From: Acidobacteriota bacterium | GTDB lineage: Bacteria > Acidobacteriota > UBA6911 > RPQK01 > CBDBID01 | Assembly: GCA_965205565.1 (NCBI GenBank) | Contig: CBDBID010000040.1 | Coordinates: forward strand, 111,451-175,450 | Reading direction: 5' to 3' | Length of the DNA: 64,000 bases | Part shown: in pieces, positions 4,513-52,403 of the stretch | Numbering within the stretch: position 1 is the first letter of the stretch | How the letters are laid out: each line of letters begins with the position of its first letter | The notes under the pieces: generated by a model | Database searches by the model: none | The model's input: the letters and a program-made list of their open reading frames with translations, nothing else | Told to the model about the DNA's origin: nothing | Made by a program: the position numbers and the translations under genes

Positions 4513-5079
4513 ATGACCTGGATACGAACCGTTTCCTACGCTCAGGGGGGGGCTCGGCTCAAGAAGGCCATGGATCGGCTACGAGAACTCTACCCTCCAG
4601 AGTACGATCTGCCCGTTCAAGAGGCCGGGCAACGGCAGGAGAGCGTGGTGGCGGTACATAGCTTGATTCCTGATGCTCTCTATCATGCTCTGGCGACTCA
4701 CGGTGTCCTGCTGTCTCCCGAGCTGCCGCTGAGCCGGGCGCAACAGGAGATGATCTCCACGGTGGTCTCGGTTCAGAATCGGTGCTCCTTTTGAATCGAA
4801 TCTCACGCAGAGTTTCTGCGTCAAGTTAGCCTGGACGAACCACTGGTCAAAGCTCTGCAGGAAGATTACCGATCGGCGCCGATTTCCGATCGGGACCGGA
4901 TGATGCTGGATTACGTAGTCCAGCTGACCAAGGATGCCACCCGGATTTCGCGACAGGATCATCACAAATTGGGTCAGGCGGGCTTCGAGGAGCGAGCCAT
5001 CCTGCAGATGACCCTGATTGCCGCTTGGTTCAATTACATCAACCGAGTCGCCGATGCCCTGGGCGTCGGCCGGCCTTAG
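4513..5079 (+). CDS. AhpD/carboxymuconolactone-decarboxylase (CMD) family peroxidase-related protein; candidate selenoprotein with in-frame UGA at 4792-4794
   Basis: GGAGG RBS then ATG at 4513. The reading frame continues unbroken across TGA 4792-4794 to TAG 5077-5079. The motif NRCSF-[TGA]-IESHAEF puts the TGA at the second Cys of the family's CxxC...H redox motif. The C-terminal region ([18 protein letters not shown]) is typical CMD. Confidence 0.6.
4805..4821 (+). promoter_or_regulatory. SECIS-like hairpin (ACGCAGA-GUU-UCUGCGU) starting at the 11th nt after the UGA
   Basis: Perfect 7-bp stem with a 3-nt GUU loop, preceded by a 10-nt spacer after TGA 4792-4794; total 17 nt. Confidence 0.45.
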
Positions 5080-5908: not shown

Positions 5909-6084
5909 ATCTCCCCGCTGATCGCCAGTTCTCACGGGAGTCGGGGACGGGCAGTCGGATCGGCCAGAATCACAGGTTGACTCTCCACTGTTCCGATCAT
6001 TGCAATAAAGGGGTGGTGCCGCGCAGCCGATTCGAAGGCTTGCGGAGCCAAATCGTAAGGAGAGTGAACAGCTGGATTGGGATT

Positions 6085-7125
6085 ATGGAATGGCTTGTTT
6101 TGCCGGCCGCTGTGGTGGCCCTTTTCGGAGTCCTGGTGCTGGCTGGAGTCCTCTACCAGATGGTGGGAAGCCGGAGGGACCGATCCCGGTATCCGCCCAC
6201 GGGGCGCCTTGTCGAGGTCAGTTCTCACCGGCAGCACATCCACTGCCTAGGACGGGGCAGTCCCGTCGTGGTCTTCGATTCCGCACTGGCTGCTTCAAGC
6301 TTGAGTTGGTGGCAAGTTCAGCCTCAGGTAGCCCGCTTCACGCGAACCCTGAGCTATGACCGGGCAGCTTCGGGTTGGAGCGAGGCCGGGCCTCTTCCGA
6401 GGACCGTCGACCGCCTCGTGCAAGAACTGCGGCTGCTCCTCAAGGCTTCCGGCGAGAACCCTCCCTATGTGCTGGTGGGACATTCCTATGGGGGGCTCAC
6501 CCTGCGCCTGTACGCATCCCGCTATCCAGGCGAGGTGGCAGGAATGATTCTGGTGGACCCAGCTGATCCGAAGGAATGGCTGAATCCGGATGCGGAGCGG
6601 GGAGAAACATTGGAGGTCGGAGCCCGGATGGCTCGCCGAGGAGCCCTTCTGGCTCGTCTCGGTGTTGCCCGACTGATAGGTGACCTGGCGGCCTGCGGAG
6701 CCTTGAGCCGGGCTCGACAAATGGCATCCTGGGCGGGTCTCGGAATCTTGCAGGCACAGGAGACCCGGCTGGTGGCTCCTCTGGCCAAGCTTCCCTTGAA
6801 ATTGCGGTTGGTCGGCCGAACCTTCTGGACACGTCCCGAATTCTTCGAGGCCCTGGCCAGCCAGATTGAACACCTACCCGCCGGCGCTCGGCAGGTCGAT
6901 GCCATCGGTGATCACGGAGATGTGCCCCTGGTCGTGCTGACGGCTGCGGAATCTCCGATGGATAAGCGGCGAGCGCACCAGGCGATGGCCGCTCTTTCTT
7001 CCAGCGGGCGCCACCTGCTTGCCTCGACCCGCAGTCACTGGATCCCCATCGAGGAGCCGCAGTTGGTGATCCGGACTGTCCAGGAAGTGGTGGAGGAGGC
7101 CCGCCGCAAGTCGAGAAGCTCCTGA
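6085..7125 (+). CDS. alpha/beta-fold hydrolase
   Basis: N-terminal TM helix; nucleophile elbow GHSYGG; 346 aa from the ATG at 6085 (the ORF-track start at 5773 is probably upstream read-through). Confidence 0.7.
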   Translation: MEWLVLPAAVVALFGVLVLAGVLYQMVGSRRDRSRYPPTGRLVEVSSHRQHIHCLGRGSPVVVFDSALAASSLSWWQVQPQVARFTRTLSYDRAASGWSEAGPLPRTVDRLVQELRLLLKASGENPPYVLVGHSYGGLTLRLYASRYPGEVAGMILVDPADPKEWLNPDAERGETLEVGARMARRGALLARLGVARLIGDLAACGALSRARQMASWAGLGILQAQETRLVAPLAKLPLKLRLVGRTFWTRPEFFEALASQIEHLPAGARQVDAIGDHGDVPLVVLTAAESPMDKRRAHQAMAALSSSGRHLLASTRSHWIPIEEPQLVIRTVQEVVEEARRKSRSS

Positions 7126-7615: not shown

Positions 7616-9254
7616 CCGACATTCCTCATATCAACTTCGGATGTGAGTTCCTCTGACCTCTACATGATGAATGATCAAAACCTATCAGTCCCCCAACCTT
7701 GAATCAACCGTTCCTTCCCCATCCTTCGGCTGAAAAGGGCCTGTGATCACTGGTTTTCAAGATGCTTTTGGCAAAATCTGATAATCGGAGACACCTCTCC
7801 AGTTGCTCGATCAGAAACACTGAACGCTAAGCTGTACTCCATCTCAATCGGTCAATCCGAGACAATAGCTCGGCCCATATCTCCTGGCTTACCGCGACCT
7901 CCGCCATCTGAAATGTGACGATCCGGCTATGCCAAACTACCTTCGCTCCGATCTTGATCAGCTTAGTCAATAGGCTGCGAAGGGACCAGTGTTTGATGCT
8001 TCTAGGGAGGACCAGCCGCCGCAGGAAATTGCCCAGGTTATAGGCCAAAACGAACAGACCCAACCTCACCTGATTCGGGACAAAGCGCTGGCAGGACAGC
8101 CGTGTCCAGTTCAACGCATACTTGCCTTCCTTGATCCACTGCTCGACGGTGCCACGCCCATTGTAAAAGTGAACCACCCCTGGAGCTTGCGCGCTCATAT
8201 TGGTCACGATGAAACCGACTCTCGGAAAGAGTTCGCCGCGATGCCACTCGACCTTGGCAATCACCCGTCGAGGCCGGTCCCAACTGGCGGCTTGATAGCT
8301 GAAATCGGCAAACCAGACGACGGGTTTTCGGGGTGGACGACCCACTGGCCGGGTCAGCAGGTGTTCAATCTTTTCTTGAAGCACCTGGTTGGCGGGAAGC
8401 CGGATGGCATACAAAAAGCCTTTCTTCTCCAGGTATTGATAAATCTCCGGCTTGGCGAAGGCGGCATCCCCCCGAAAGTATTTGCGGACTTTCTTCTTCT
8501 CGTAGCGAGCCACGATTGGTTCCAGTAGCTCCTTCCAGCGATCCGCGCTGTGAACGTTGCCGGGGCGAAGCAAGGCACCTTCGCAATCTCCGAACTGGTT
8601 AAAACAAAACAGGGGATGGTAGCAGGTGCATCCAAAATGGCCGTTGTAGGCAGAGTCTTCTTGCTCGCCATGGACCGGGCTGGCTGAACTGTCCATATCC
8701 AGAATGATTCGTCGATGAGCGGTCTTCTCCAGTGCTCGTTCCACCCATTGGCCATTGACTTCCGAAAGGGCTTTGAGGTTGTCCTTAACAGACAGCATCT
8801 GGGTCTCAAATCGACCCATTGTGTTGGCACTGGCGGCATTCTTCTTGTCGATCTTCTTTCCAGTGATCCTCCGCATAGTCGGATCCACCGATAAACGATG
8901 ACCATCGTTGACATCTTCATAGCCAGCCAGGCGGCTGTATACTGATTGGCGCAGCAACGACGCGAGGTGGTGCTGGATGTTGCGCCCGGTCCGCGAATCG
9001 TCAAAAACTGAGGGTACACTATCGAATAAAGCCAACGCCTCGTCCAGGTCACGATAGGCGAGAAGTCCGGCATCCGATGTGACCTTTGCCCCATGAAATT
9101 CAAGCCTCAGACTGCCATCAATACCAAGCTTCATACCTTCACCCTTTGGGTTAGCCATTTCTTGCCCTCTTTCATAGATTATATCTGCTGTAATTATAAT
9201 GGGTTAGGGTGATATAGGGAGGCACGATGAGTGTCCCATATGGTGAATGGGGAT
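7616..9254 (-). mobile_element. IS1380-family insertion sequence, copy 1 (intact, ~1.64 kb)
   Basis: Terminal IRs GACATTCCTCATATCA (7616 end) and CCCATATGGTGAATGGGGA (9254 end); near-identical copies at 50945-52403 and a decayed one at 39395-40500. Confidence 0.8.
7827..9158 (-). CDS. IS1380-family DDE transposase (443 aa)
   Basis: Family-typical N-terminus ...KVTSDAGLLAYRDLDEALALFD and length; copy at 51040-52191 is identical apart from a C-terminal deletion and 2 aa substitutions. Confidence 0.8.
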   Translation of the reverse strand: MANPKGEGMKLGIDGSLRLEFHGAKVTSDAGLLAYRDLDEALALFDSVPSVFDDSRTGRNIQHHLASLLRQSVYSRLAGYEDVNDGHRLSVDPTMRRITGKKIDKKNAASANTMGRFETQMLSVKDNLKALSEVNGQWVERALEKTAHRRIILDMDSSASPVHGEQEDSAYNGHFGCTCYHPLFCFNQFGDCEGALLRPGNVHSADRWKELLEPIVARYEKKKVRKYFRGDAAFAKPEIYQYLEKKGFLYAIRLPANQVLQEKIEHLLTRPVGRPPRKPVVWFADFSYQAASWDRPRRVIAKVEWHRGELFPRVGFIVTNMSAQAPGVVHFYNGRGTVEQWIKEGKYALNWTRLSCQRFVPNQVRLGLFVLAYNLGNFLRRLVLPRSIKHWSLRSLLTKLIKIGAKVVWHSRIVTFQMAEVAVSQEIWAELLSRIDRLRWSTA

Positions 9255-10281: not shown

Positions 10282-11734
10282 CTAGCAGTCCGTGGTGGAA
10301 GTACGTTTTCTGAGCTCAGGTGGTACCCACCGGTGGAAGCAGCGAAGGGGTCGCTGAGGTGGGTTTTTCGGGCCAAGCAGCCGGAATCAGTCCGAACAGG
10401 CCCTTAAGACGCTTGAACAGCGACAAAATCAGTAGCATTAGGGCGCAAATCCGCCCCTGCAGACCCCGCGGCGTTCCCACACCCAGGCTCTGACGCATCA
10501 GCATCCCCAGATTGAAGGCGCTCACCTGGATCAGCAGTCGCTTCAACACATTCTCATGTCCCCGTACATGCAGCCGTCTCATCCCTCCGCTCCCGTACAG
10601 ATGCGCACAGGGTCGCTCCAGCTGCTCTCCTCGTTGCTGCAGCAGCCGCTGCCCTCGCTCTCCCCGGATGCGCCGCCGATTCGCATACACCGCTTCCTGC
10701 CCCTGCCGGTCTCCTCGCCAGCGTCGCTTCCCTCGCCTCGGTTCGCTCACATAGCTGCGCAGTCCCACCGCATCCAGGTCCACCATCCGCTGCGTGCTGT
10801 GATACCCCTTGTCGGCCACCACCTCTTCGATGCCTCGTCCCTCCGGCAGCGCTTGTTCCACCTTCTCGACCGCTTCCGTCAGGGTCTTCACCATGGTCTG
10901 CGTGTCCCCTTGATCGGCTCCCTGTACCGTCACCGAGACAATCGCTCCGGTCTCCAGATCCACTGCATGCTCCGCCTTGTGCGCCAGGTGCGTCCGCCCG
11001 TCCTTCATTCTGGTAATCCGCGCATCCGCATCATGCGGGTGCTTCCAAACCCGGTTCGATCCTTTGCCCGTGCGCTTGCGGTCCAGTTTGGCCAGATCTT
11101 CCCGTCGCGGCGTCTCAATCCCGGAGGCTTTCGCCAGCTCCATCAAAAACTCTTCATACCCCTGCTCGCTGTCCCGGCGCACGATGCTGCGCAGCGCTGC
11201 ATTCGCTTCCAGCGTAGTGGCATCGATGCCGATCGTCTTGCCCCGCAGCAGGCCGCTCGCCCCGATCCGCTTCAGTACCCAGTCAAAGACTGCTTCGTGG
11301 GTAGCCACATCGATCAGTCGCCGGGTTCGGGAGATCGTGGAGTGATCAGACGGCGACTCGCTCAGTTTCAATCCCAGAAACTCTCGCAGTGCCAGAGAAT
11401 CAGCTGCTCTCCAGGCTATTCCTCGTTCCGATCCGATCCCTTCGAAATACCCCACCAGCAGCAGCCGAAAGTACACTCCCGGAGCCAGGCTCGGTCGCCC
11501 CATCTTGTCTGCATAGAACTTCGCACACAGTCCCTCCACGAAGTCGTCAAAACCGTGTTCGTTGAAAAGGCCATTCAGTCTTTCGTAGAAGGGATGGCCG
11601 GCGGTGCGGGGCAGCTCACTGGTGGCGACCCACAGGTCTTCTTGCTGTCGACGTTTCTTTTTCCCCATTGCCATGGGGTCAGTCTAGTGTCGCTGTGTGA
11701 CCCCTTATCCTCGACTTTCACCACGGGCTGCTAG
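10282..11734 (-). mobile_element. IS5/IS1182-family insertion sequence, copy A (1453 bp)
   Basis: Imperfect 20-bp IRs CTAGCAGTCCGTGGTGGAAG / CTTTCACCACGGGCTGCTAG; second copy at 41235-42686 with >99% identity. Confidence 0.8.
10316..11674 (-). CDS. IS5/IS1182-family transposase (452 aa, DUF772 N-terminal domain + DDE)
   Basis: FYADKMGRPSLAPGVYFRLLLVGYFEGIGSERGIAWRAADSL is the InsH-N/DUF772 signature; ADKGYHS DDE region. Confidence 0.8.
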   Translation of the reverse strand: MAMGKKKRRQQEDLWVATSELPRTAGHPFYERLNGLFNEHGFDDFVEGLCAKFYADKMGRPSLAPGVYFRLLLVGYFEGIGSERGIAWRAADSLALREFLGLKLSESPSDHSTISRTRRLIDVATHEAVFDWVLKRIGASGLLRGKTIGIDATTLEANAALRSIVRRDSEQGYEEFLMELAKASGIETPRREDLAKLDRKRTGKGSNRVWKHPHDADARITRMKDGRTHLAHKAEHAVDLETGAIVSVTVQGADQGDTQTMVKTLTEAVEKVEQALPEGRGIEEVVADKGYHSTQRMVDLDAVGLRSYVSEPRRGKRRWRGDRQGQEAVYANRRRIRGERGQRLLQQRGEQLERPCAHLYGSGGMRRLHVRGHENVLKRLLIQVSAFNLGMLMRQSLGVGTPRGLQGRICALMLLILSLFKRLKGLFGLIPAAWPEKPTSATPSLLPPVGTT

Positions 11735-14928: not shown

Positions 14929-15333
14929 ATGGCAACCATACGTGTGATGGAAGAGAGGGAGGCCGAGGGGCGGGTTCGGGAGATCTTCGAAGAGATCAAG
15001 AAAACCAAAGAGATTGATTTAGTGCCAGCCATCTGGCGGGCGCTGGCGAATCATCCCGGCCATCTGGAAGTGACCTGGAAGAAACTGAAGGGAATCATGC
15101 ACGAGTCCAGTCGACTGGACCTGAAGACCAAGGAGATGCTGGCCCTGGCGGTATCCATTACCAACGGTTGCACCTACTGAATCCATTCCCATACAGTCGC
15201 CGTGAAGCGGCTTGGATTGGATAATAAAGGGTTGGGCGAGCTGATCGCGGTGATCGACCTATTTAATGGTTTGAACCGAGTGGCCGATGGCTACCAGCTG
15301 GAGCCGGACGTGGTACCTGCTCTGGAAGATTGA
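14929..15333 (+). CDS. AhpD/CMD-family protein, paralogue 2; candidate selenoprotein with in-frame UGA at 15178-15180
   Basis: Frame continuous across the TGA to the TGA at 15331-15333; motif ITNGCTY-[TGA]-IHSH parallels NRCSF-[TGA]-IESH of the 4513 gene; C-terminus LGELIAVIDLFNGLNRVADGY is CMD-like. Confidence 0.5.
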
Positions 15334-25451: not shown

Positions 25452-26885
25452 ATGGCCCCTGTGGCGAACCCCACCCAGGCGTTACGCTCTCTCCCCTCCG
25501 TAGACGAGGTCCTGCGGCGCAGTGCCGTCAAGAAACTGCTGCAATCCCACGCCCGAGATCTGGTGGTTCGCATCGTCCAGGAGCGCCTGGAAGAGCTGCG
25601 CACGCTGGTTTTGAGCCAGCATCTGGACGAGGCCGCGCTGGAGTCGCGTCTGGCGAATCTGGACGGGTGCATCAGTGCTTGCTTGAGAAAATATCTTATC
25701 CCGTCGTTGCACAAGGTGGTCAATGCCACAGGTGTGATCGTTCATACCAACTTGGGCCGGGCCCCCATGGCGGCTCCCGCGGCGGCCAGGTTGGAGGAGA
25801 TCGCCAGATCCTACTCGACGCTGGAGTACGATCTGGAGAAGGGTGATCGAGGGCATCGGGACCGTTATTTCGAGCAGCGAATGATGCAAGTTCTGGGATG
25901 TGAGGCCGCCACCGTCTGCAACAACAATGCCGCCGCGGTTTTCCTGCTCGTCAACACCCTGGCCGCCGGCAAAAAGGTGCTGGTGAGTCGAGGTGAGCTG
26001 ATCGAAATCGGAGGGTCTTTCCGCATTCCCGACATCCTTCGAAGTAGTGGTGCTGTCCTGAAAGAAGTGGGGACCACCAACAAGACCAGGACCTCGGATT
26101 ACCGGAACGCCATCGACGAGGACACGGCTCTCATCTTACGGGTTCATCCGAGCAATTACCGAGTCGTAGGATTTACGGCGAGGCCCCGTTTGAAGGAATT
26201 GAGCGAGCTGGCGCGGGAACGGAACCTGTATCTCATCAAGGATGCGGGAAGTGGTTACCTTTTCCCGATTTCCCACTCAGTCTTGGGTCGCGAACCAACC
26301 ATCCAGTCGGTCCTGCAAACGGGGGTTGATGCCGTGTGTTTCAGCGGCGACAAATTACTGGGGGGGCCACAGTCCGGCGTGGTGGTAGGAAAAAGGGATT
26401 TGATTGATCGCCTCCGCGACAACCCTCTGATGAGAGTTTTCCGTGTGGACAAGATGACTTACGCTGCGCTGGACTCGACGCTGCTGGAATATCTCAAGGG
26501 AACGGCGGCGCAAACAATCCCCGTCCTGCGCATGCTATCGCTTTCGGTCGAAGAGCTGGAGCATCGAGCCAGGGGGATACAAGAACAGCTCGATTCGCGC
26601 GTTTTTGAAACTTGTCTGCGAGCGGGGGCCTCGGTAGTGGGCGGTGGAGCCGCCCCGGAAGAATCGATCGACACCAGGCTACTGGCTATCCGCTGGCCAG
26701 CCCATTCAGCCCACGACTTGGAGCAAGCGCTGCGCCACCAGGATCCTCCGATCCTGGCACGTATCGGAAAAGATCAATTGCTGCTGGACTTGCGAACCGT
26801 CTTGCCGGAAGAAGACCCAATCGTGGTAAAGGCCTTCTCGAGACTGGCCAATAGGCGTGAGGATCCCGTTCACACAAGCGGTTGA
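25452..26885 (+). CDS. selA: L-seryl-tRNA(Sec) selenium transferase (selenocysteine synthase) SelA
   Basis: LPSVDEVL N-terminus, VVNATGVIVHTNLGRA, CNNNAAAVFL...SRGELIEIGGSFRIP, PLP-lysine region FSGDKLLGGPQSG; 477 aa. Confidence 0.85.
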   Translation: MAPVANPTQALRSLPSVDEVLRRSAVKKLLQSHARDLVVRIVQERLEELRTLVLSQHLDEAALESRLANLDGCISACLRKYLIPSLHKVVNATGVIVHTNLGRAPMAAPAAARLEEIARSYSTLEYDLEKGDRGHRDRYFEQRMMQVLGCEAATVCNNNAAAVFLLVNTLAAGKKVLVSRGELIEIGGSFRIPDILRSSGAVLKEVGTTNKTRTSDYRNAIDEDTALILRVHPSNYRVVGFTARPRLKELSELARERNLYLIKDAGSGYLFPISHSVLGREPTIQSVLQTGVDAVCFSGDKLLGGPQSGVVVGKRDLIDRLRDNPLMRVFRVDKMTYAALDSTLLEYLKGTAAQTIPVLRMLSLSVEELEHRARGIQEQLDSRVFETCLRAGASVVGGGAAPEESIDTRLLAIRWPAHSAHDLEQALRHQDPPILARIGKDQLLLDLRTVLPEEDPIVVKAFSRLANRREDPVHTSG

Positions 26886-35926: not shown

Positions 35927-36577
35927 TTGACCCCTCTCTTTGCCTGTTACTTTGGCCTTCTTCCCTTGCTTTTCGCACAAGCGCAGGCAACGGAGAAAAG
36001 AGCTGAGCCAGAGTCTCAGGGCGATCGACCATCACACCCTTATCTGGGAGATCACGGCCGAAGGATGGCTGAATTTGGTGGCCAAGGCCCAAGGCTATTG
36101 TTGAGGGCACTTCGCAGTCAAAAGCTTCAGAAAGAGTTGAGCCTCACCGAGGAACAGCGTACCAAGCTTGAGGATTTTGGTTTCAACGCCGCCAAAACGA
36201 TGATTGAACAACGGGCTGCCATACAGGTTCAACGGTTGAAACTGCATCGCTTGATGGCCAGTGAGAATCCGGACCGAGGTGCGATTGACCAGACTCTGAA
36301 CAAGATCGCCGAGACTCGTGGTTCCTTGTCGCGTTCCCTTGTGAACTCCTTTTTGGATGCTCGAAACGTCCTCGCTGAAGAGCGCGGGACAAACTGCGGC
36401 AGCTTATGCGCAAGAAGATGCGCCAGCGATTTCACCAGCGTGAGCGCAGAAAACATTTTAGGGGCCGCCATCCAGCTCCGCCGCCCGAGCCACCTGGTCA
36501 GTGAAGGTCCAACAAACCCTGCATGTCCCGTTGCAGGCGCATCCCTTGCGAGGCGAGCCATTGGAGTCTGCGCTTGA
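35927..36577 (+). CDS. Spy/CpxP-family periplasmic protein (LTXXQ motif)
   Basis: Signal peptide; LSLTEEQRTKLEDF; the C-terminal ~50 aa look frame-shifted. Confidence 0.45.
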   Translation: MTPLFACYFGLLPLLFAQAQATEKRAEPESQGDRPSHPYLGDHGRRMAEFGGQGPRLLLRALRSQKLQKELSLTEEQRTKLEDFGFNAAKTMIEQRAAIQVQRLKLHRLMASENPDRGAIDQTLNKIAETRGSLSRSLVNSFLDARNVLAEERGTNCGSLCARRCASDFTSVSAENILGAAIQLRRPSHLVSEGPTNPACPVAGASLARRAIGVCA

Positions 36578-36855
36578 GGGCCAAGTGTGCCGGCGTCACG
36601 GTGCCTCACCTTAGGCAAGTCTGGAAGGCGGCGGATCTGAGACCGCACCGGATCAAGACTTTAAAGATCAGTACCGATCCGAACTTCTCCTAGAAGATCA
36701 TCGGCATCGTGGGCCTGTATCAACGCGACCGGTGGGACTCCTAATTTCCCCGCCTTTCATCTTGACTGCTCTCCGTTTGTGGGCCAACCTTTCAAATCTC
36801 TCAACACCGCTGGCGCCTGAGCTGGAGAAACAATCCTGAATCGTGGAAGAGGTAG

Positions 36856-37309
36856 ATGGCCAGAAGCCTGATGCTCATTGCAGCTGCGACCTTTATCATC
36901 GCTCCGCCGTCCCCGACACCCAAGGCCGGGGAGGAAACTTTGGCTGAGAGCAAGAAGGTGGAACGAATTGCAATTACGGAACTCAAGAAGAAGCTTGACG
37001 GTGGCGTAAAAATTCCTCTTGATTGATGTCCGAGAGGATTGGGAATTGGAAGAACATGGGGCGATCCCGGGTGCCCTTCACATCCCCGTGGGCGAGCTCG
37101 ACGACCGGATGAAGGATATTCCCAAGGGTGTCGGCATCGTCTTCTACTGAATGGGTGGAGGGCGCGCGTCGCGCGCCGCCGAGAAGTTCATCAAGGCCGG
37201 CTACAATACTGGTCAGTTTTGTGGCCTTCGCGACTGGAAGAAAGACGGTCAGGAAGTCGTCGAGAAAGTGGATCGGCCGCCAGCAGGACCGATCCAGCCA
37301 GAAAGATAG
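36856..37309 (+). CDS. single-domain rhodanese (sulfurtransferase) with TGA at the active-site Cys position (candidate selenoprotein) and a +1 frameshift in an A5 run
   Basis: ATG 36856 with signal-like N-terminus. The frame switches at AAAAA 37008-37012 (A5 -> A4 restores DGGVKFLLIDVREDWELEEHGAIPGALHIPVGEL). IVFY-[TGA 37148-37150]-MGGGRASRAAEKFIKAGY places the TGA exactly where the rhodanese catalytic Cys (CRSGxR loop) sits. Stop is TAG 37307-37309. Confidence 0.55.
37161..37177 (+). promoter_or_regulatory. SECIS-like hairpin (GGCGCGC-GUC-GCGCGCC) starting at the 11th nt after the UGA
   Basis: 7-bp stem, 3-nt GUC loop, 10-nt spacer after TGA 37148-37150; identical architecture to the hairpin at 4805-4821. 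Confidence 0.45.
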
Positions 37310-37321
37310 CTAACCCTCAAT

Positions 37322-38071
37322 TCATGGCTCATCTGTGTCTGGGTGCCGGAGAGATGACCGACCTGTGCTTTGGCAGGTCGCTGCTGCCTCCAACAACTCC
37401 CTCAGCTTCCTGAGTGCCGCTTCCTGTCTGCCCTGAATGGTCGACGCGGGAATTCCCGTTTCCCTTGAAACTTCTGCTCGTTTCCGCTCACTGACGTCGA
37501 ATTCAATGGCCTGCTGCTGGTAGCTAGGAAGAGACTTCACGGTTGGCAGCATGCTGAGATCGTAGAGTTCAAGCCGCTCTCGGCGCTCCAGAACGGCATG
37601 CGGGGATTCGTCTAAGGCGCCTATCAGCTCTCCGTCGCTTTCTAGCCGGGCTGTGCCACTTTCAGGTAGCCGGCGATGACCATGACGAGTACGCCCAGCA
37701 TGATGGTGATGCGCAACCAAAGTTTCGCGTTTTGCCGGATACGCTCGAACGCTGCGGCTCTTCCGGTAAGTGCGGATCTCAAGGAAAAAGATGCCAAACG
37801 CGAGAAGGATTTTGATTCCCATAAGTGTGTTGTATAGCGTGTCTCCGCGATGCTCGGGAAGCGAAACGACAAGGTAATTGTAGAATCCGCTGGCGAGAAA
37901 CAGCACGATACCGATCATGACAACGACCTTCCATCGGCCCATGATGTGCCCTCGCAGGGCCTGCTGTTCCTCCTCCGGCAGCTGCGTTGCGGCGGGCATC
38001 AGCACAAAGCGCATGAAGATGCTTCCCCCCAGGACAACAATCGCGGTGGCAACGTGAACGACACGGGACAC
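37322..38071 (-). CDS. 4-TM membrane protein fused in frame to a sigma-70 region-4-like HTH (possible fusion artefact of an ECF sigma gene)
   Basis: The N-terminal 130 aa are hydrophobic helices; the C-terminus LPSYQQQAIEFDVSERKRAEVSRETGIPASTIQGRQEAALRKLRELL is a typical sigma region 4. Confidence 0.3.
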   Translation of the reverse strand: MSRVVHVATAIVVLGGSIFMRFVLMPAATQLPEEEQQALRGHIMGRWKVVVMIGIVLFLASGFYNYLVVSLPEHRGDTLYNTLMGIKILLAFGIFFLEIRTYRKSRSVRAYPAKRETLVAHHHHAGRTRHGHRRLPESGTARLESDGELIGALDESPHAVLERRERLELYDLSMLPTVKSLPSYQQQAIEFDVSERKRAEVSRETGIPASTIQGRQEAALRKLRELLEAAATCQSTGRSSLRHPDTDEP

Positions 38072-38203: not shown

Positions 38204-38900
38204 GTGAGCAAGGAAGCGACGGAAAATATTCGGCTCGTTCCAGACGACGATGACGAAATCTTGGCTCCTGGGGGTGTCTACCCGCCACTCCTATCGAACA
38301 AGTCGATGACGGTGGATGCCGTCTGCGTTAGCGTCAGGCGGTTTCCTTTCTGGAACCGCGATTGCATCGTACGACACCTTCCGAATCTTCGCACCTGATG
38401 AGTACGCTGGAGTAAAAGTGCCCCTTTACGCACTCTGGAAGAAGAAGTGGGAAAGACGGGGACTACCGCCATCTTCCAAAATCGGCAAGCTGGTGGTGAT
38501 CGTAGCATCGACGGTGCGCTGATTTCACAGACCCAGACGATTTCGTGTTTTGCCGAGCTGACGGCAGCCCACTGGACACTGATTTGCTTCGCCGAACGGG
38601 GATCTACCCGGCACTGGAAAAGGCGGGAATCCCCTTCAAGAAACGCGCGAGCGGGTGTCATGCCTTTCGGCACCTCGTGGCCAGCATTATTCACGAGGCT
38701 AGGGGGAGTCTGAAGCTGGCCCAAAGTCAGTTGGGTCATTTCTACGACTAGCGACATCTACACGCAAGTGGTACGACCGAGAGCTGGAGAAGTTTTCTTC
38801 CGCTCTGGATCGAGCACTGGGTCAGGGTAATGACGTTGTAGAAATATTGATACGACGAAGAAATTGGTACCAGCTCGGTGCAGTAAATATCAACTCAAGA
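38204..38900 (+). pseudogene. tyrosine recombinase (phage-type integrase) remnant, multiply frameshifted
   Basis: Catalytic C-terminal motifs HAFRHLVAS...LAQSQLGH then, in other frames, TTSDIYTQV / WYDRELEKF. Confidence 0.45.
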
Positions 38901-38926
38901 TCCATGGAATCCAAGGGTTAAGCGTT

Positions 38927-38960
38927 AGCGCCCGACAGGATTTGAACCTGCGACCTTTGG
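38927..38960 (-). other. 3' fragment of a tRNA gene (variable loop-T arm-acceptor 3' strand), probable integrase attachment-site remnant
   Basis: Minus-strand AGGTCGCAGGTTCAAATCCTGTCGGGCGCT has a perfect T arm and acceptor 3' strand but no matching 5' acceptor strand or anticodon arm; directly downstream of the integrase remnant. Confidence 0.4.
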
Positions 38961-39394
38961 TTGCGTAGTCAAACGGGAGGGCCGCGACGGCCCTCCCATA
39001 TTTCACTGCACACTAAGCGGATGCAGTGTACTTGCAGAAACACTAGCCAATCCTCCCAGTCAGCCTGAGTCAGCTGGAATAAGCCTGAGTCATGTCCTGA
39101 CTGGCACATTTCTTAGCCCATTTCTAGGCCCCCGCCCCCCCCGCTTGGGGCTGCCTTTCCACCAGCTTATATACGTTTTGGCACACAGGCGTCAGTGACC
39201 AATTTCGAGCAGTGGAGGTCAGTGCTGTTCCTGTCTACAATGCGGATCAATCACCCGCGTGCGGTCTGCTAACGAGAGCGAGGGGTGACCATCTTCTGGA
39301 AGGAACAGGCTCGGAGAAAGAGCATGAAAGAGAAAAGCAGCCGCCTGATAGTCATCTTCACTGCGTTGATTCGGGTCACTCTGATGGTAGTAGA

Positions 39395-41234: not shown

Positions 41235-42686
41235 TAGCAGTCCGTGGTGGAAGTACGTTTTCTGAGCTCAGGTGGTACCCACCGGTGGAAGCAGCGAAGG
41301 GGTCGCTGAGGTGGGTTTTTCGGGCCAAGCAGCCGGAATCAGTCCGAACAGGACCTTAAGACGCTTGAACAGCGACAAAATCAGTAGCATTAGGGCGCAA
41401 ATCCGCCCCTGCAGACCCCGCGGCGTTCCCACACCCAGGCTCTGACGCATCAGCATCCCCAGATTGAAGGCGCTCACCTGGATCAGCAGTCGCTTCAACA
41501 CATTCTCATGTCCCCGTACATGCAGCCGTCTCATCCCTCCGCTCCCGTACAGATGCGCACAGGGTCGCTCCAGCTGCTCTCCTCGTTGCTGCAGCAGCCG
41601 CTGCCCTCGCTCTCCCCGGATGCGCCGCCGATTCGCATACACCGCTTCCTGCCCCTGCCGGTCTCCTCGCCAGCGTCGCTTCCCTCGCCTCGGTTCGCTC
41701 ACATAGCTGCGCAGTCCCACCGCATCCAGGTCCACCATCCGCTGCGTGCTGTGATACCCCTTGTCGGCCACCACCTCTTCGATGCCTCGTCCCTCCGGCA
41801 GCGCTTGTTCCACCTTCTCGACCGCTTCCGTCAGGGTCTTCACCATGGTCTGCGTGTCCCCTTGATCGGCTCCCTGTACCGTCACCGAGACAATCGCTCC
41901 GGTCTCCAGATCCACTGCATGCTCCGCCTTGTGCGCCAGGTGCGTCCGCCCGTCCTTCATTCTGGTAATCCGCGCATCCGCATCATGCGGGTGCTTCCAA
42001 ACCCGGTTCGATCCTTTGCCCGTGCGCTTGCGGTCCAGTTTGGCCAGATCTTCCCGTCGCGGCGTCTCAATCCCGGAGGCTTTCGCCAGCTCCATCAAAA
42101 ACTCTTCATACCCCTGCTCGCTGTCCCCGCGCACGATGCTGCGCAGCGCTGCATTCGCTTCCAGCGTAGTGGCATCGATGCCGATCGTCTTGCCCCGCAG
42201 CAGGCCGCTCGCCCCGATCCGCTTCAGTACCCAGTCAAAGACTGCTTCGTGGGTAGCCACATCGATCAGTCGTCGGGTTCGGGAGATCGTGGAGTGATCA
42301 GACGGCGACTCGCTCACTTTCAATCCCAGAAACTCTCGCAGTCCCAGAGAATCAGCTGCTCTCCAGGCAATTCCTCGTTCCGATCCGATCCCTTCGAAAT
42401 ACCCCACCAGCAGCAGCCGAAAGTACACTCCCGGAGCCAGGCTCGGTCGCCCCATCTTGTCTGCATAGAACTTCGCACACAGTCCCTCCACGAAGTCGTC
42501 AAAGCCGTGTTCGTTGAAAAGGCCATTCAGTCTTTCGTAGAAGGGATGGCCGGCGGTGTGGGGCAGCTCACTGGTGGCGACCCACAGGTCTTCTTGCTGT
42601 CGACGTTTCTTTTTCCCCATTGCCATGGGGTCAGTCTAGTGTCGCTGTGTGACCCCTTATCCTCGACTTTCACCACGGGCTGCTAG
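41235..42686 (-). mobile_element. IS5/IS1182-family insertion sequence, copy B (1452 bp)
   Basis: Same IRs as copy A; 4 aa differences in the transposase; same orientation as copy A (direct repeats ~29.5 kb apart). Confidence 0.8.
41268..42626 (-). CDS. IS5/IS1182-family transposase (452 aa)
   Basis: Near-identical to 10316-11674. Confidence 0.8.
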   Translation of the reverse strand: MAMGKKKRRQQEDLWVATSELPHTAGHPFYERLNGLFNEHGFDDFVEGLCAKFYADKMGRPSLAPGVYFRLLLVGYFEGIGSERGIAWRAADSLGLREFLGLKVSESPSDHSTISRTRRLIDVATHEAVFDWVLKRIGASGLLRGKTIGIDATTLEANAALRSIVRGDSEQGYEEFLMELAKASGIETPRREDLAKLDRKRTGKGSNRVWKHPHDADARITRMKDGRTHLAHKAEHAVDLETGAIVSVTVQGADQGDTQTMVKTLTEAVEKVEQALPEGRGIEEVVADKGYHSTQRMVDLDAVGLRSYVSEPRRGKRRWRGDRQGQEAVYANRRRIRGERGQRLLQQRGEQLERPCAHLYGSGGMRRLHVRGHENVLKRLLIQVSAFNLGMLMRQSLGVGTPRGLQGRICALMLLILSLFKRLKVLFGLIPAAWPEKPTSATPSLLPPVGTT

Positions 42687-50944: not shown

Positions 50945-52403
50945 TCCCCATTCACCATATGGGACACTCATCGTGCCTCCCTATATCACCCTAACCCATT
51001 ATAATTACAGCAGATATAATCTATGAAAGAGGGCAAGAAATGGCTAACCCAAAGGGTGAAGGTATGAAGCTTGGTATTGATGGCAGTCTGAGGCTTGAAT
51101 TTCATGGGGCAAAGGTCACATCGGATGCCGGACTTCTCGCCTATCGTGACCTGGACGAGGCGTTGGCTTTATTCGATAGTGTACCCTCAGTTTTTGACGA
51201 TTCGCGGACCGGGCGCAACATCCAGCACCACCTCGCGTCGTTGCTGCGCCAATCAGTATACAGCCGCCTGGCTGGCTATGAAGATGTCAACGATGGTCAT
51301 CGTTTATCGGTGGATCCGACTATGCGGAGGATCACTGGAAAGAAGATCGACAAGAAGAATGCCGCCAGTGCCAACACAATGGGTCGATTTGAGACCCAGA
51401 TGCTGTCTGTTAAGGACAACCTCAAAGCCCTTTCGGAAGTCAATGGCCAATGGGTGGAACGAGCACTGGAGAAGACCGCTCATCGACGAATCATTCTGGA
51501 TATGGACAGTTCAGCCAGCCCGGTCCATGGCGAGCAAGAAGACTCTGCCTACAACGGCCATTTTGGATGCACCTGCTACCATCCCCTGTTTTGTTTTAAC
51601 CAGTTCGGAGATTGCGAAGGTGCAATGCTTCGCCCCGGCAACGTTCACAGCGCGGATCGCTGGAAGGAGCTACTGGAACCAATCGTGGCTCGCTACGAGA
51701 AGAAGAAAGTCCGCAAATACTTTCGGGGGGATGCCGCCTTCGCCAAGCCGGAGATTTATCAATACCTGGAGAAGAAAGGCTTTTTGTATGCCATCCGGCT
51801 TCCCGCCAACCAGGTGCTTCAAGAAAAGATTGAACACCTGCTGACCCGGCCAGTGGGTCGTCCACCCCGAAAACCCGTCGTCTGGTTTGCCGATTTCAGC
51901 TATCAAGCCGCCAGTTGGGACCGGCCTCGACGGGTGATTGCCAAGGTCGAGTGGCATCGCGGCGAACTCTTTCCGAGAGTCGGTTTCATCGTGACCAATA
52001 TGAGCGCGCAAGCTCCAGGGGTGGTTCACTTTTACAATGGGCGTGGCACCGTCGAGCAGTGGATCAAGGAAGGCAAGTATGCGTTGAACTGGACACGACT
52101 CTCCTGCCAGCGCTTTGTCCCGAATCAGGTGAGGTTGGGTCTGTTCGTTTTGGCCTCTCGGATTGACCGCTTGAGATGGAGTACGGCTTAAGCGTCGAGT
52201 GTTTCTGACCAAGTGGGTGGAGAAGTGTCTCCGCTTATCGGATTTTGCCGAGATGACCTGGATAATCGAGGGATCAGAGGCCTTTTTCAGCCGACCCATG
52301 AGGGCAAACACTTGCTCCCTGGTCGGAGGGCTGATAGGTTTTGATTTCCACCACGGTGAGACCCGAAGAAGGTTAATCACAGGCTGATATGAGGAATGTC
52401 GGT
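50945..52403 (+). mobile_element. IS1380-family insertion sequence, copy 2 (internal ~180-bp deletion at the transposase 3' end)
   Basis: Same termini as copy 1 (TCCCCATTCACCATATGGG ... GATATGAGGAATGTCGGTT); the transposase lacks the 60 residues LAYNLGNF...AELLS present in copy 1. Confidence 0.8.
51040..52191 (+). CDS. IS1380-family transposase, C-terminally deleted variant (383 aa)
   Basis: Identical to the 7827-9158 product apart from a 60-aa deletion and 2 aa substitutions. Confidence 0.75.
   Translation: MANPKGEGMKLGIDGSLRLEFHGAKVTSDAGLLAYRDLDEALALFDSVPSVFDDSRTGRNIQHHLASLLRQSVYSRLAGYEDVNDGHRLSVDPTMRRITGKKIDKKNAASANTMGRFETQMLSVKDNLKALSEVNGQWVERALEKTAHRRIILDMDSSASPVHGEQEDSAYNGHFGCTCYHPLFCFNQFGDCEGAMLRPGNVHSADRWKELLEPIVARYEKKKVRKYFRGDAAFAKPEIYQYLEKKGFLYAIRLPANQVLQEKIEHLLTRPVGRPPRKPVVWFADFSYQAASWDRPRRVIAKVEWHRGELFPRVGFIVTNMSAQAPGVVHFYNGRGTVEQWIKEGKYALNWTRLSCQRFVPNQVRLGLFVLASRIDRLRWSTA

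Follow-up and report, generated by a model that had tools for sequence, protein, structure and literature searches.

A 64,000-nucleotide (nt) stretch of an Acidobacteriota genome (assembly GCA_965205565.1, contig CBDBID010000040.1, positions 111,451 to 175,450 of the forward strand; hereafter the window, with all coordinates counted from its first base) carries a rhodanese gene at 36856–37309 (+) in which an in-frame UGA stands in place of the catalytic cysteine codon and is followed closely by a short hairpin. The sequences of its relatives strongly support the assignment of this gene to a genuine selenoprotein family, with selenocysteine (Sec) at the UGA and the hairpin as its selenocysteine insertion sequence (SECIS), to which SelB would bind. 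The copy in the window is itself most probably a recently inactivated member of that family: a young pseudogene, disrupted by an inherited single-T frameshift, in a decaying region rich in insertion sequences (IS).

UGA at the catalytic position of a rhodanese

The gene is read in two frames. A Shine–Dalgarno-like GGAAGAGG (36845–36852, +), identified by direct reading, lies 3 nt 5′ of the ATG at 36856 in a region kept in the closest intact relatives, loci L001 and L002; a consensus scan found no sigma-70-like promoter 5′ of the gene. The first frame (36856–37006, +) encodes a signal peptide predicted from its sequence pattern (MARSLMLIAAATFIIA...) and then the first helix of the domain (ERIAITELKKKLDGG), and this N-terminus is common to the homologues in alignment. 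The second frame carries the middle of the domain, KFLLIDVRE...GVGIVFY (37008–37147, +), recognized by open reading frame (ORF) reading, PF00581 and homologue alignment; it reads ...LIDVREDWELEE...GVGIVFY, or in full (F)LLIDVREDWELEEHGAIPGALHIPVGELDDRMKDIPKGVGIVFY, up to the TGA at 37148–37150 (+), and continues beyond it as MGGGRASRAAEKFIKAGYNTGQFCGLRDWKKDGQEVVEKVDRPPAGPIQPER. This 3′ part (MGGGRASRAAEKF...IQPER; 37151–37309, +) ends at the TAG stop at 37307–37309 and is conserved in full-length Cys homologues. The frame-repaired product is a single-domain protein of 150 amino acids (aa).

With Cys placed at the UGA, the repaired protein scored 50 bits with PF00581, above the cut-off of 22.2 (E = 4.5e-13), a comparison that the first-pass annotation of this sequence had proposed, and the rhodanese PDB 6mxv matched it at E = 2e-16. 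In alignments to PF00581, PDB 6mxv, PDB 3nta and the Cys-form homologues, the TGA (residue 98 after repair of the frame) falls on the catalytic Cys, bearing out the earlier claim that a single-domain rhodanese has UGA at its catalytic position. The active-site loop, U-M-G-G-G-R (UxxGxR), is of the CxxGxR type, with UGA in place of the Cys codon. Downstream, the remaining 52 residues align with full-length Cys homologues, and dN/dS between the window and L001, the closest intact relative, is 0.18; on this comparative evidence, the sequence after the UGA is shown to be under coding constraint. Synonymous divergence between the same two sequences is very uneven, dS being 0.10 before the UGA but 0.52 after it, which may mean that a recombination breakpoint lies within the gene.

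A hairpin conserved with the UGA codon

Direct reading agrees with the first description of a hairpin 10 nt past the TGA (37161–37177, +). Its arms, GGCGCGC (37161–37167) and GCGCGCC (37171–37177), form seven G–C pairs around the loop GUC (37168–37170) after a 10-nt spacer (37151–37160), and the element folded alone has a free energy of –12.9 kcal/mol. The AhpD-like gene elsewhere in the window does, as had been noted, share this architecture, with ACGCAGA-GUU-UCUGCGU at 4805–4821 again following a 10-nt spacer. Perfect hairpins with a stem of 7 base pairs (bp) and a 3-nt loop occur only seven times in the 64-kb window (1.1e-4 per position), and since two of the seven start exactly 10 nt after the in-frame TGAs of the rhodanese and AhpD-like genes, their placement is more than chance. 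An extended lower stem, in which the UGA pairs with a downstream UCA, was also predicted in the window and some relatives; its conservation is lacking, and it was not counted in the element.

A protein search with the repaired protein in a clustered set of 5.8 billion proteins returned 346 homologues, and the DNA of relatives was taken from 185,579 species genomes and JGI metagenomes. Many of the homologues, 93–104 aa long, have ...VFY as their last residues, the very point at which a gene caller stops on meeting TGA. Others are full-length Cys forms sharing the C-terminal half (e.g. P0001–P0004 and P0006–P0010), and P0005 has W at the Sec column, as expected from a TGA translated under another genetic code. 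Of 81 related loci, representing 69 distinct sequences, 71 (60 distinct) have TGA as the catalytic codon and the remainder TGC or TGT; the UGA forms belong to Terriglobia, Vicinamibacterales, Solibacteraceae and 'Binatia' or lie on unbinned contigs. For 22 genome loci, tblastn matches run from query residues 1–8 to 147–150, over which the reading frame is uninterrupted.

The presence of the hairpin follows the identity of this codon. Of the 60 distinct UGA forms, 59 have the full 7-bp stem, placed at either of two fixed registers, compared to none of the nine Cys forms (Fisher p = 1.8e-10), and six of those nine encode the same GGRASRAA peptide without the hairpin (e.g. L025, GGC AGA GCC TCG CGA GCT). 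One register, class A, includes the window and is characterized by a 10-nt spacer, a stem GGCGCGC/GCGYGCY and a G-N-N loop; its hairpin is kept in 45 of 46 distinct UGA-form sequences. Fourfold-degenerate sites inside the class A hairpin are fixed (GGG 46/46, CGC 45/46, GCG 46/46, xxG 46/46), and the first loop base is G in all 46 despite its fourfold degeneracy. On the 3′ arm, two third positions vary; each faces a G and is occupied by C or U, apart from a single A in L015. At fourfold sites that immediately flank the hairpin, all four bases occur. Stem cells are paired in 99.7% of cases in class A, compared to 14–73% in slid controls; 35 of the 36 variant cells are one-sided and preserve the pair (G–C to G–U), and one breaks it. 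In this comparison, the hairpin is shown to be under RNA-level selection only where the codon is UGA.

The second register, class B, belongs to Vicinamibacteria and has a 14-nt spacer, a 7–8 bp stem GAGCUCC/GGAGCUC and an 8-nt loop, CGGGCUGC. It comprises L027–L040, L057, L102, L103 and L107, which have the protein motif VFF-U-NxGGRxSRAAELF; as the alignments indicate, the Vicinamibacteria hairpin is remodelled while the peptide stayed similar. Two orders thus use different hairpin designs, which could help to define the rules of SelB recognition beyond Proteobacteria and Firmicutes. The clade also offers a natural experiment, in which GGRASRAA is encoded with a frozen hairpin at UGA and without one at UGC or UGU. 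Overall, the proposal of Sec at the UGA, with the hairpin serving as a bacterial SECIS, gains support from the 59/60 versus 0/9 contrast, the frozen synonymous sites and the coding constraint.

The survey also bears on annotation. Clade members P0011–P0120 are deposited as 93–97-aa 'rhodanese-like domain-containing' or 'hypothetical' proteins, or are misnamed (SseA, hydroxyacylglutathione hydrolase), and their public records all end at the Sec codon. Dozens of these Acidobacteriota deposits are the N-terminal two-thirds of selenoproteins of ~145–150 aa. A look-up found the 52-aa C-terminal ORF of the window gene on record nowhere as a called gene.

In intact relatives, the ribosome would meet the UGA at the U-x-x-G-x-R active-site loop, and the 17-nt hairpin GGCGCGC-GNN-GCGYGCY, whose loop opens with the invariant G, would recruit SelB and Sec-tRNA(Sec) from its position 10 nt downstream. 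Sec would be inserted at the UGA and translation would run on for 52 more codons, yielding a small single-domain rhodanese that is probably exported, to judge from its N-terminus, and in which Sec could act as a persulfide-type carrier in sulfur transfer. In the window lineage, translation from the ATG would instead halt at 37024–37026 after 56 residues, short of the in-frame Sec codon.

Probable inactivation of the window allele

The ATG of the window gene is out of frame with the UGA because a T is inserted at 37007 (+). This T makes a TAA in the downstream frame and leads the upstream frame to a premature TGA at 37024–37026 (+), such that the ORF from ATG 36856 encodes only MARSLMLIAAATFIIAPPSPTPKAGEETLAESKKVERIAITELKKKLDGGVKIPLD, 56 aa. 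The first-pass annotation had recognized the break and had attributed it to an extra A in the A5 run at 37008–37012, the removal of which was said to give a perfect rhodanese segment. The closest intact relatives place it differently. L001 (on a 4.57-Mb ENA contig) and L002 (on a short scaffold) both have an uninterrupted frame, and in the protein search their N-terminal products, P0012 and P0011, matched the query at 81% and 86% identity, respectively. Both read GGCG-AAAAATTC (GGC GAA AAA TTC CTC; G E K F) where the window reads GGCG-T-AAAAATTC. As L001 and L002 carry A5, the run is native and the parsimonious event is insertion of T at 37007. Removal of this T restores the family consensus GEKFLLIDVRE, whereas removal of an A gives GVKF, with a V that is seen in no homologue. 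A compensating upstream indel that would restore the frame was sought and rejected, as comparison with L001 showed only two other indels, a 21-nt one that keeps the frame and a 3-nt one that precedes the ATG. In L001 itself, a 21-nt tandem duplication at about 6040–6085, CTGCCGTCCCCGACATACAAG x2 (LPSPTYK x2), lies in the signal-peptide/linker region of the Sec-rhodanese.

The exact 56-aa frameshifted product recurs on three other assemblies (ERZ26167216 ctg410013_5.67x, ERZ25068861 contig_82 and ERZ25067264 ctg788872_7x), the DNA of which is 98.5–99.5% identical to the window over 2–4 kb. The T is common to all four loci: the window, L083, L084 and L085. Within the gene, L083 differs from the window by a synonymous change of CGA to CGC and L085 by AAT to AAC and by AAG to GAG, the latter replacing an almost invariant Lys (K90E); both have single-nucleotide polymorphisms (SNPs) of their own in and around the gene. 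L084 is the same as the window across the gene. Insofar as the T is shared by four assemblies and absent in the nearest intact relatives, it was inherited and represents a real inactivation. The earlier preference for a sequencing error over decay is therefore not sustained: the T is not part of a homopolymer, it is found in four assemblies of which two have their own SNPs, and the region is rich in IS elements and gene remnants. Two findings had been named that would tell against a simple repair of the gene; the first, a real A5 run, was found, and the second, further lesions, was not, the rest of the ORF being intact.

Several observations weigh against the interpretation of the window gene as a recently inactivated selenoprotein gene. 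Regarding its origin as a selenoprotein gene, double-sided compensatory changes in the stem number zero among the 46 distinct class A sequences; support for the hairpin therefore comes from its conservation and the Sec/Cys contrast, not from covariation. The case for Sec insertion in every member of the clade is likewise one made from sequence. No Rfam SECIS family matched at the gathering threshold across the whole window, or at E ≤ 10 within 37100–37260, where the sole match of any kind was a chance viral pseudoknot (E = 5.4); the SECIS-model run suggested earlier for 37140–37190 thus came back empty. As curated models represent the short SECIS hairpins of bacteria poorly, the Rfam miss says little. 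A tRNA-Sec is absent from the 64-kb window, and neither SelB nor SelD turned up among the ten largest window ORFs scanned. Regarding inactivation, the ORF is otherwise undamaged, with ribosome-binding site (RBS), UGA, hairpin and C-terminus intact, and with no lesion beyond the T, inactivation either happened very recently or is only apparent, the frameshift being artefactual or bypassed. The four frameshifted sequences all come from metagenome assemblies, some at 5.7–7x coverage, and four window-private 1-nt insertions within 2 kb downstream point to local decay or to local consensus errors.

The best surviving alternative, though an unlikely one, is that the T is a sequencing or assembly error and that the Sec-rhodanese gene of the organism is in truth whole and functional. 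This would fit the undamaged remainder of the gene, the low coverage that two contigs declare in their names (5.67x and 7x), and the other private 1-nt insertions near by, one of which disrupts a DUF2269-like gene that the sister assemblies carry in intact form. However, the extra base is a T and leaves the length of the native A run unchanged, and the identical insertion stands in four assemblies, two of which are set apart from the window by in-gene SNPs of their own. The T was not read in L001, where the local sequence context is identical and the contigs are named in a similar style, nor in L002, making a systematic base-calling artefact unlikely. Moreover, no intact allele of the window lineage was found among the 5.8 billion clustered proteins, in which the best N-terminal match was 86% identical.

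We also considered two ways in which an inherited T might be bypassed. In the first, tRNA-Lys would slip by +1 on GUA-AAA-A (AAA to AAA), giving ...GGVKFLLIDVRE..., and SECIS-directed Sec insertion would follow, allowing some expression. The T insertion does create a site for perfect +1 re-pairing of the P-site tRNA-Lys, at exactly the place where a slip must fall, since the new frame has a TAA immediately before that point; an intact downstream region would also be explained, including the retention of RBS, UGA, hairpin and C-terminus in four assemblies. Nevertheless, we regard such a slip as very improbable. No stimulatory element was seen, and the 0-frame A-site codon, AUU, is no stop; an A5 run is also too short for efficient transcriptional slippage. 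Other family members have no such site, all 60 UGA forms being single-frame matches from 4 residues before the UGA to ~10 after, and the 22 genome loci being covered in a single frame by tblastn. The slip would place V where no homologue has it, and L085 has changed a nearly invariant residue (K90E). The second possibility, restart at a TTG at 37019 (MIDVRE...) to yield a leaderless, cytoplasmic Sec-rhodanese of ~96 aa, is more doubtful still: the ORF from 37019 does share its frame with the UGA and the C-terminal region, but no Shine–Dalgarno-like sequence precedes it, and three elements present in every homologue would be missing from the product, namely the signal peptide, the conserved ERIAISELKKKL helix and some of the first beta-strand (FLLIDV). 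Finally, that the TGA is a plain nonsense mutation of TGC or TGT, and the hairpin a by-product of GC-rich Arg and Ala codons, might be suggested by a gene that is already frameshifted and set among remnants, and by the single substitution needed, but this reading is effectively refuted by the Sec/Cys contrast (59/60 versus 0/9, with most of the Cys forms encoding the same peptide) and the frozen synonymous sites, together with TGA in 60 distinct homologues from several Acidobacteriota orders with conserved downstream coding and the low rate of such hairpins in the window (1.1e-4 per position).

Recent inactivation by the inherited T thus remains our preferred account of this allele, which should be reported as a frameshifted pseudogene with no silent 'repair'. 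It exemplifies the loss of a selenoprotein through decay in an IS-rich region, within a genome where the Sec trait is otherwise retained (selA and two intact Sec genes).

Relation to known selenoproteins and SECIS elements

That rhodaneses form a known selenoprotein family, as had been stated at the outset, is well documented: Sec-containing rhodanese-related sulfurtransferases were first reported from the Sargasso Sea in 2005 (PMC1088965), and a 2026 review distinguishes five rhodanese selenoprotein forms, of which forms 2 and 4 carry UxxG (PMC13188914). By description, the window protein resembles these UxxG forms in having a single PF00581 domain, Sec for the catalytic Cys, and Cys homologues (PMC13188914, PMC1088965). 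Its motif, U-M-G-G, fits UxxG, and the window gene is thus an addition to an already catalogued type of Sec-rhodanese. The hairpin likewise has the features by which SECIS elements were recognized in the earlier study, namely a stem-loop right after the UGA and a G in a small apical loop (PMC1088965). The window protein differs from the described forms in that its clade comes mainly from Acidobacteriota, with a signal-like peptide at the N-terminus and a Pro-rich tail at the C-terminus, and in the frameshift of the window copy. The representatives given in the review (MBM9537886.1 and MCY3690685.1) were not among the accessions of the ten clusters that were looked up.

Two curated models were tried and rejected. 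The best Sec-specific NCBIfam match was NF041203, rhodanese_LYCAU (CxU), itself a small rhodanese-domain selenoprotein (E = 4.2e-9); the score of 36.1 bits falls below the cut-off of 115, and the window motif is VFY-U-xGGGR (Y-U-M-G), not LYCAU/CxU. The rhodanese/DsbD fusion TsoB (NF045694) scored 21 bits against a cut-off of 805, the window protein being a single 150-aa domain. No curated Sec-specific NCBIfam model covers the VFY-U-xGGGR clade, which has truncated public annotations and two SECIS designs. Spread across Acidobacteriota and apparently exported, it is perhaps a distinct, uncurated subfamily, which, from the sequences compared, seems more probable than the +1 slip discussed above.

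The SECIS of Escherichia coli fdhF contains a minimal 17-nt upper stem-loop, located 11 nt after the UGA, that is bound by SelB. The window hairpin is similar in being 17 nt long, starting 10 nt past the UGA within the coding sequence, and presenting a G in the apical loop. Unlike the fdhF element, it has a perfect 7-bp G–C stem and a 3-nt GNN loop, with no bulged U and no conserved lower stem; the Vicinamibacteria relatives depart further, with their 14-nt spacer, 7–8 bp stem and 8-nt loop. The same geometry of spacer, stem and loop is seen in the window for the AhpD-like (TIGR01926) CxxU selenoprotein gene, which is intact and encodes an unrelated fold. AhpD-like proteins are a known selenoprotein family (PMC1088965).

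Other selenium genes in the window

The AhpD-like gene (4513–5079, +; TIGR01926, 111 bits against a cut-off of 81.8) encodes CSF-UGA-IESH, with the UGA at 4792–4794 and the hairpin at 4805–4821. A CMD-family gene (14929–15333, +; PF02627, E = 5e-15) is a third candidate selenoprotein gene by its sequence: it reads NGCTY-UGA-IHSH, a CxxU motif with the UGA at 15178–15180, and is followed by a hairpin at 15195–15212. This hairpin has a 6-bp stem, AGUCGC-CGUGAA-GCGGCU, and starts 14 nt past the UGA within a longer predicted stem (z = –2.6). An intact selA, encoding L-seryl-tRNA(Sec) selenium transferase (477 aa), lies at 25452–26885 (+) and matches PF03841 (E = 1.9e-137) and PF12390 (E = 8.9e-10); no selB adjoins it.

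Genomic surroundings of the rhodanese gene

A Spy/LTXXQ-like ORF lies 5′ of the rhodanese gene, as does a transposase-like remnant, ...RPHRIKTLKISTDPNFS*KIIGIVGLYQRD..., at 36523–36750 (+), which has an in-frame TAG and which we take to be IS630-like. Homology with L001 and L002 starts just past this remnant, at ~36727. Among the relatives there is no informative conserved neighbour, the flanks of Sec-rhodanese genes being mostly transposases and unrelated genes, and a repeat scan of 35.5–39.5 kb gave short chance matches only. On the other side, a window-private T at 37777 frameshifts the minus-strand gene of a DUF2269-like membrane protein and fuses it to a sigma-70 region-4 fragment, forming a 249-aa ORF (37322–38071, –); the DUF2269-like gene is intact in L083–L085 and L001, and phage-integrase fragments lie beyond it. 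Compared to the three sister assemblies, the window has private, non-homopolymer 1-nt insertions at 37777 (T), 38772 (T), 38850 (A) and 38925 (T), and clusters of private substitutions at 37683–37779 and 38695–39021, all of which may reflect local decay, recombination or consensus error.

The locus is also an IS hotspot. L085 carries an IS3-family element (HTH_Tnp_1 + rve) at about 610–1865, ~115 nt upstream of the rhodanese ATG (window ~36741), and L083 has its IS3 copy further upstream, so that IS3 positions differ among the sister assemblies. Elsewhere in the window, a DUF772/DDE_Tnp_1 transposase gene is present in two copies of 452 aa each (10316–11674, –, and 41268–42626, –), and there are two apparent copies of DDE_Tnp_1_4 (7827–9158, –, and ~51040–52191, +), with an identical peptide context at 8367 (–) and 51831 (+).

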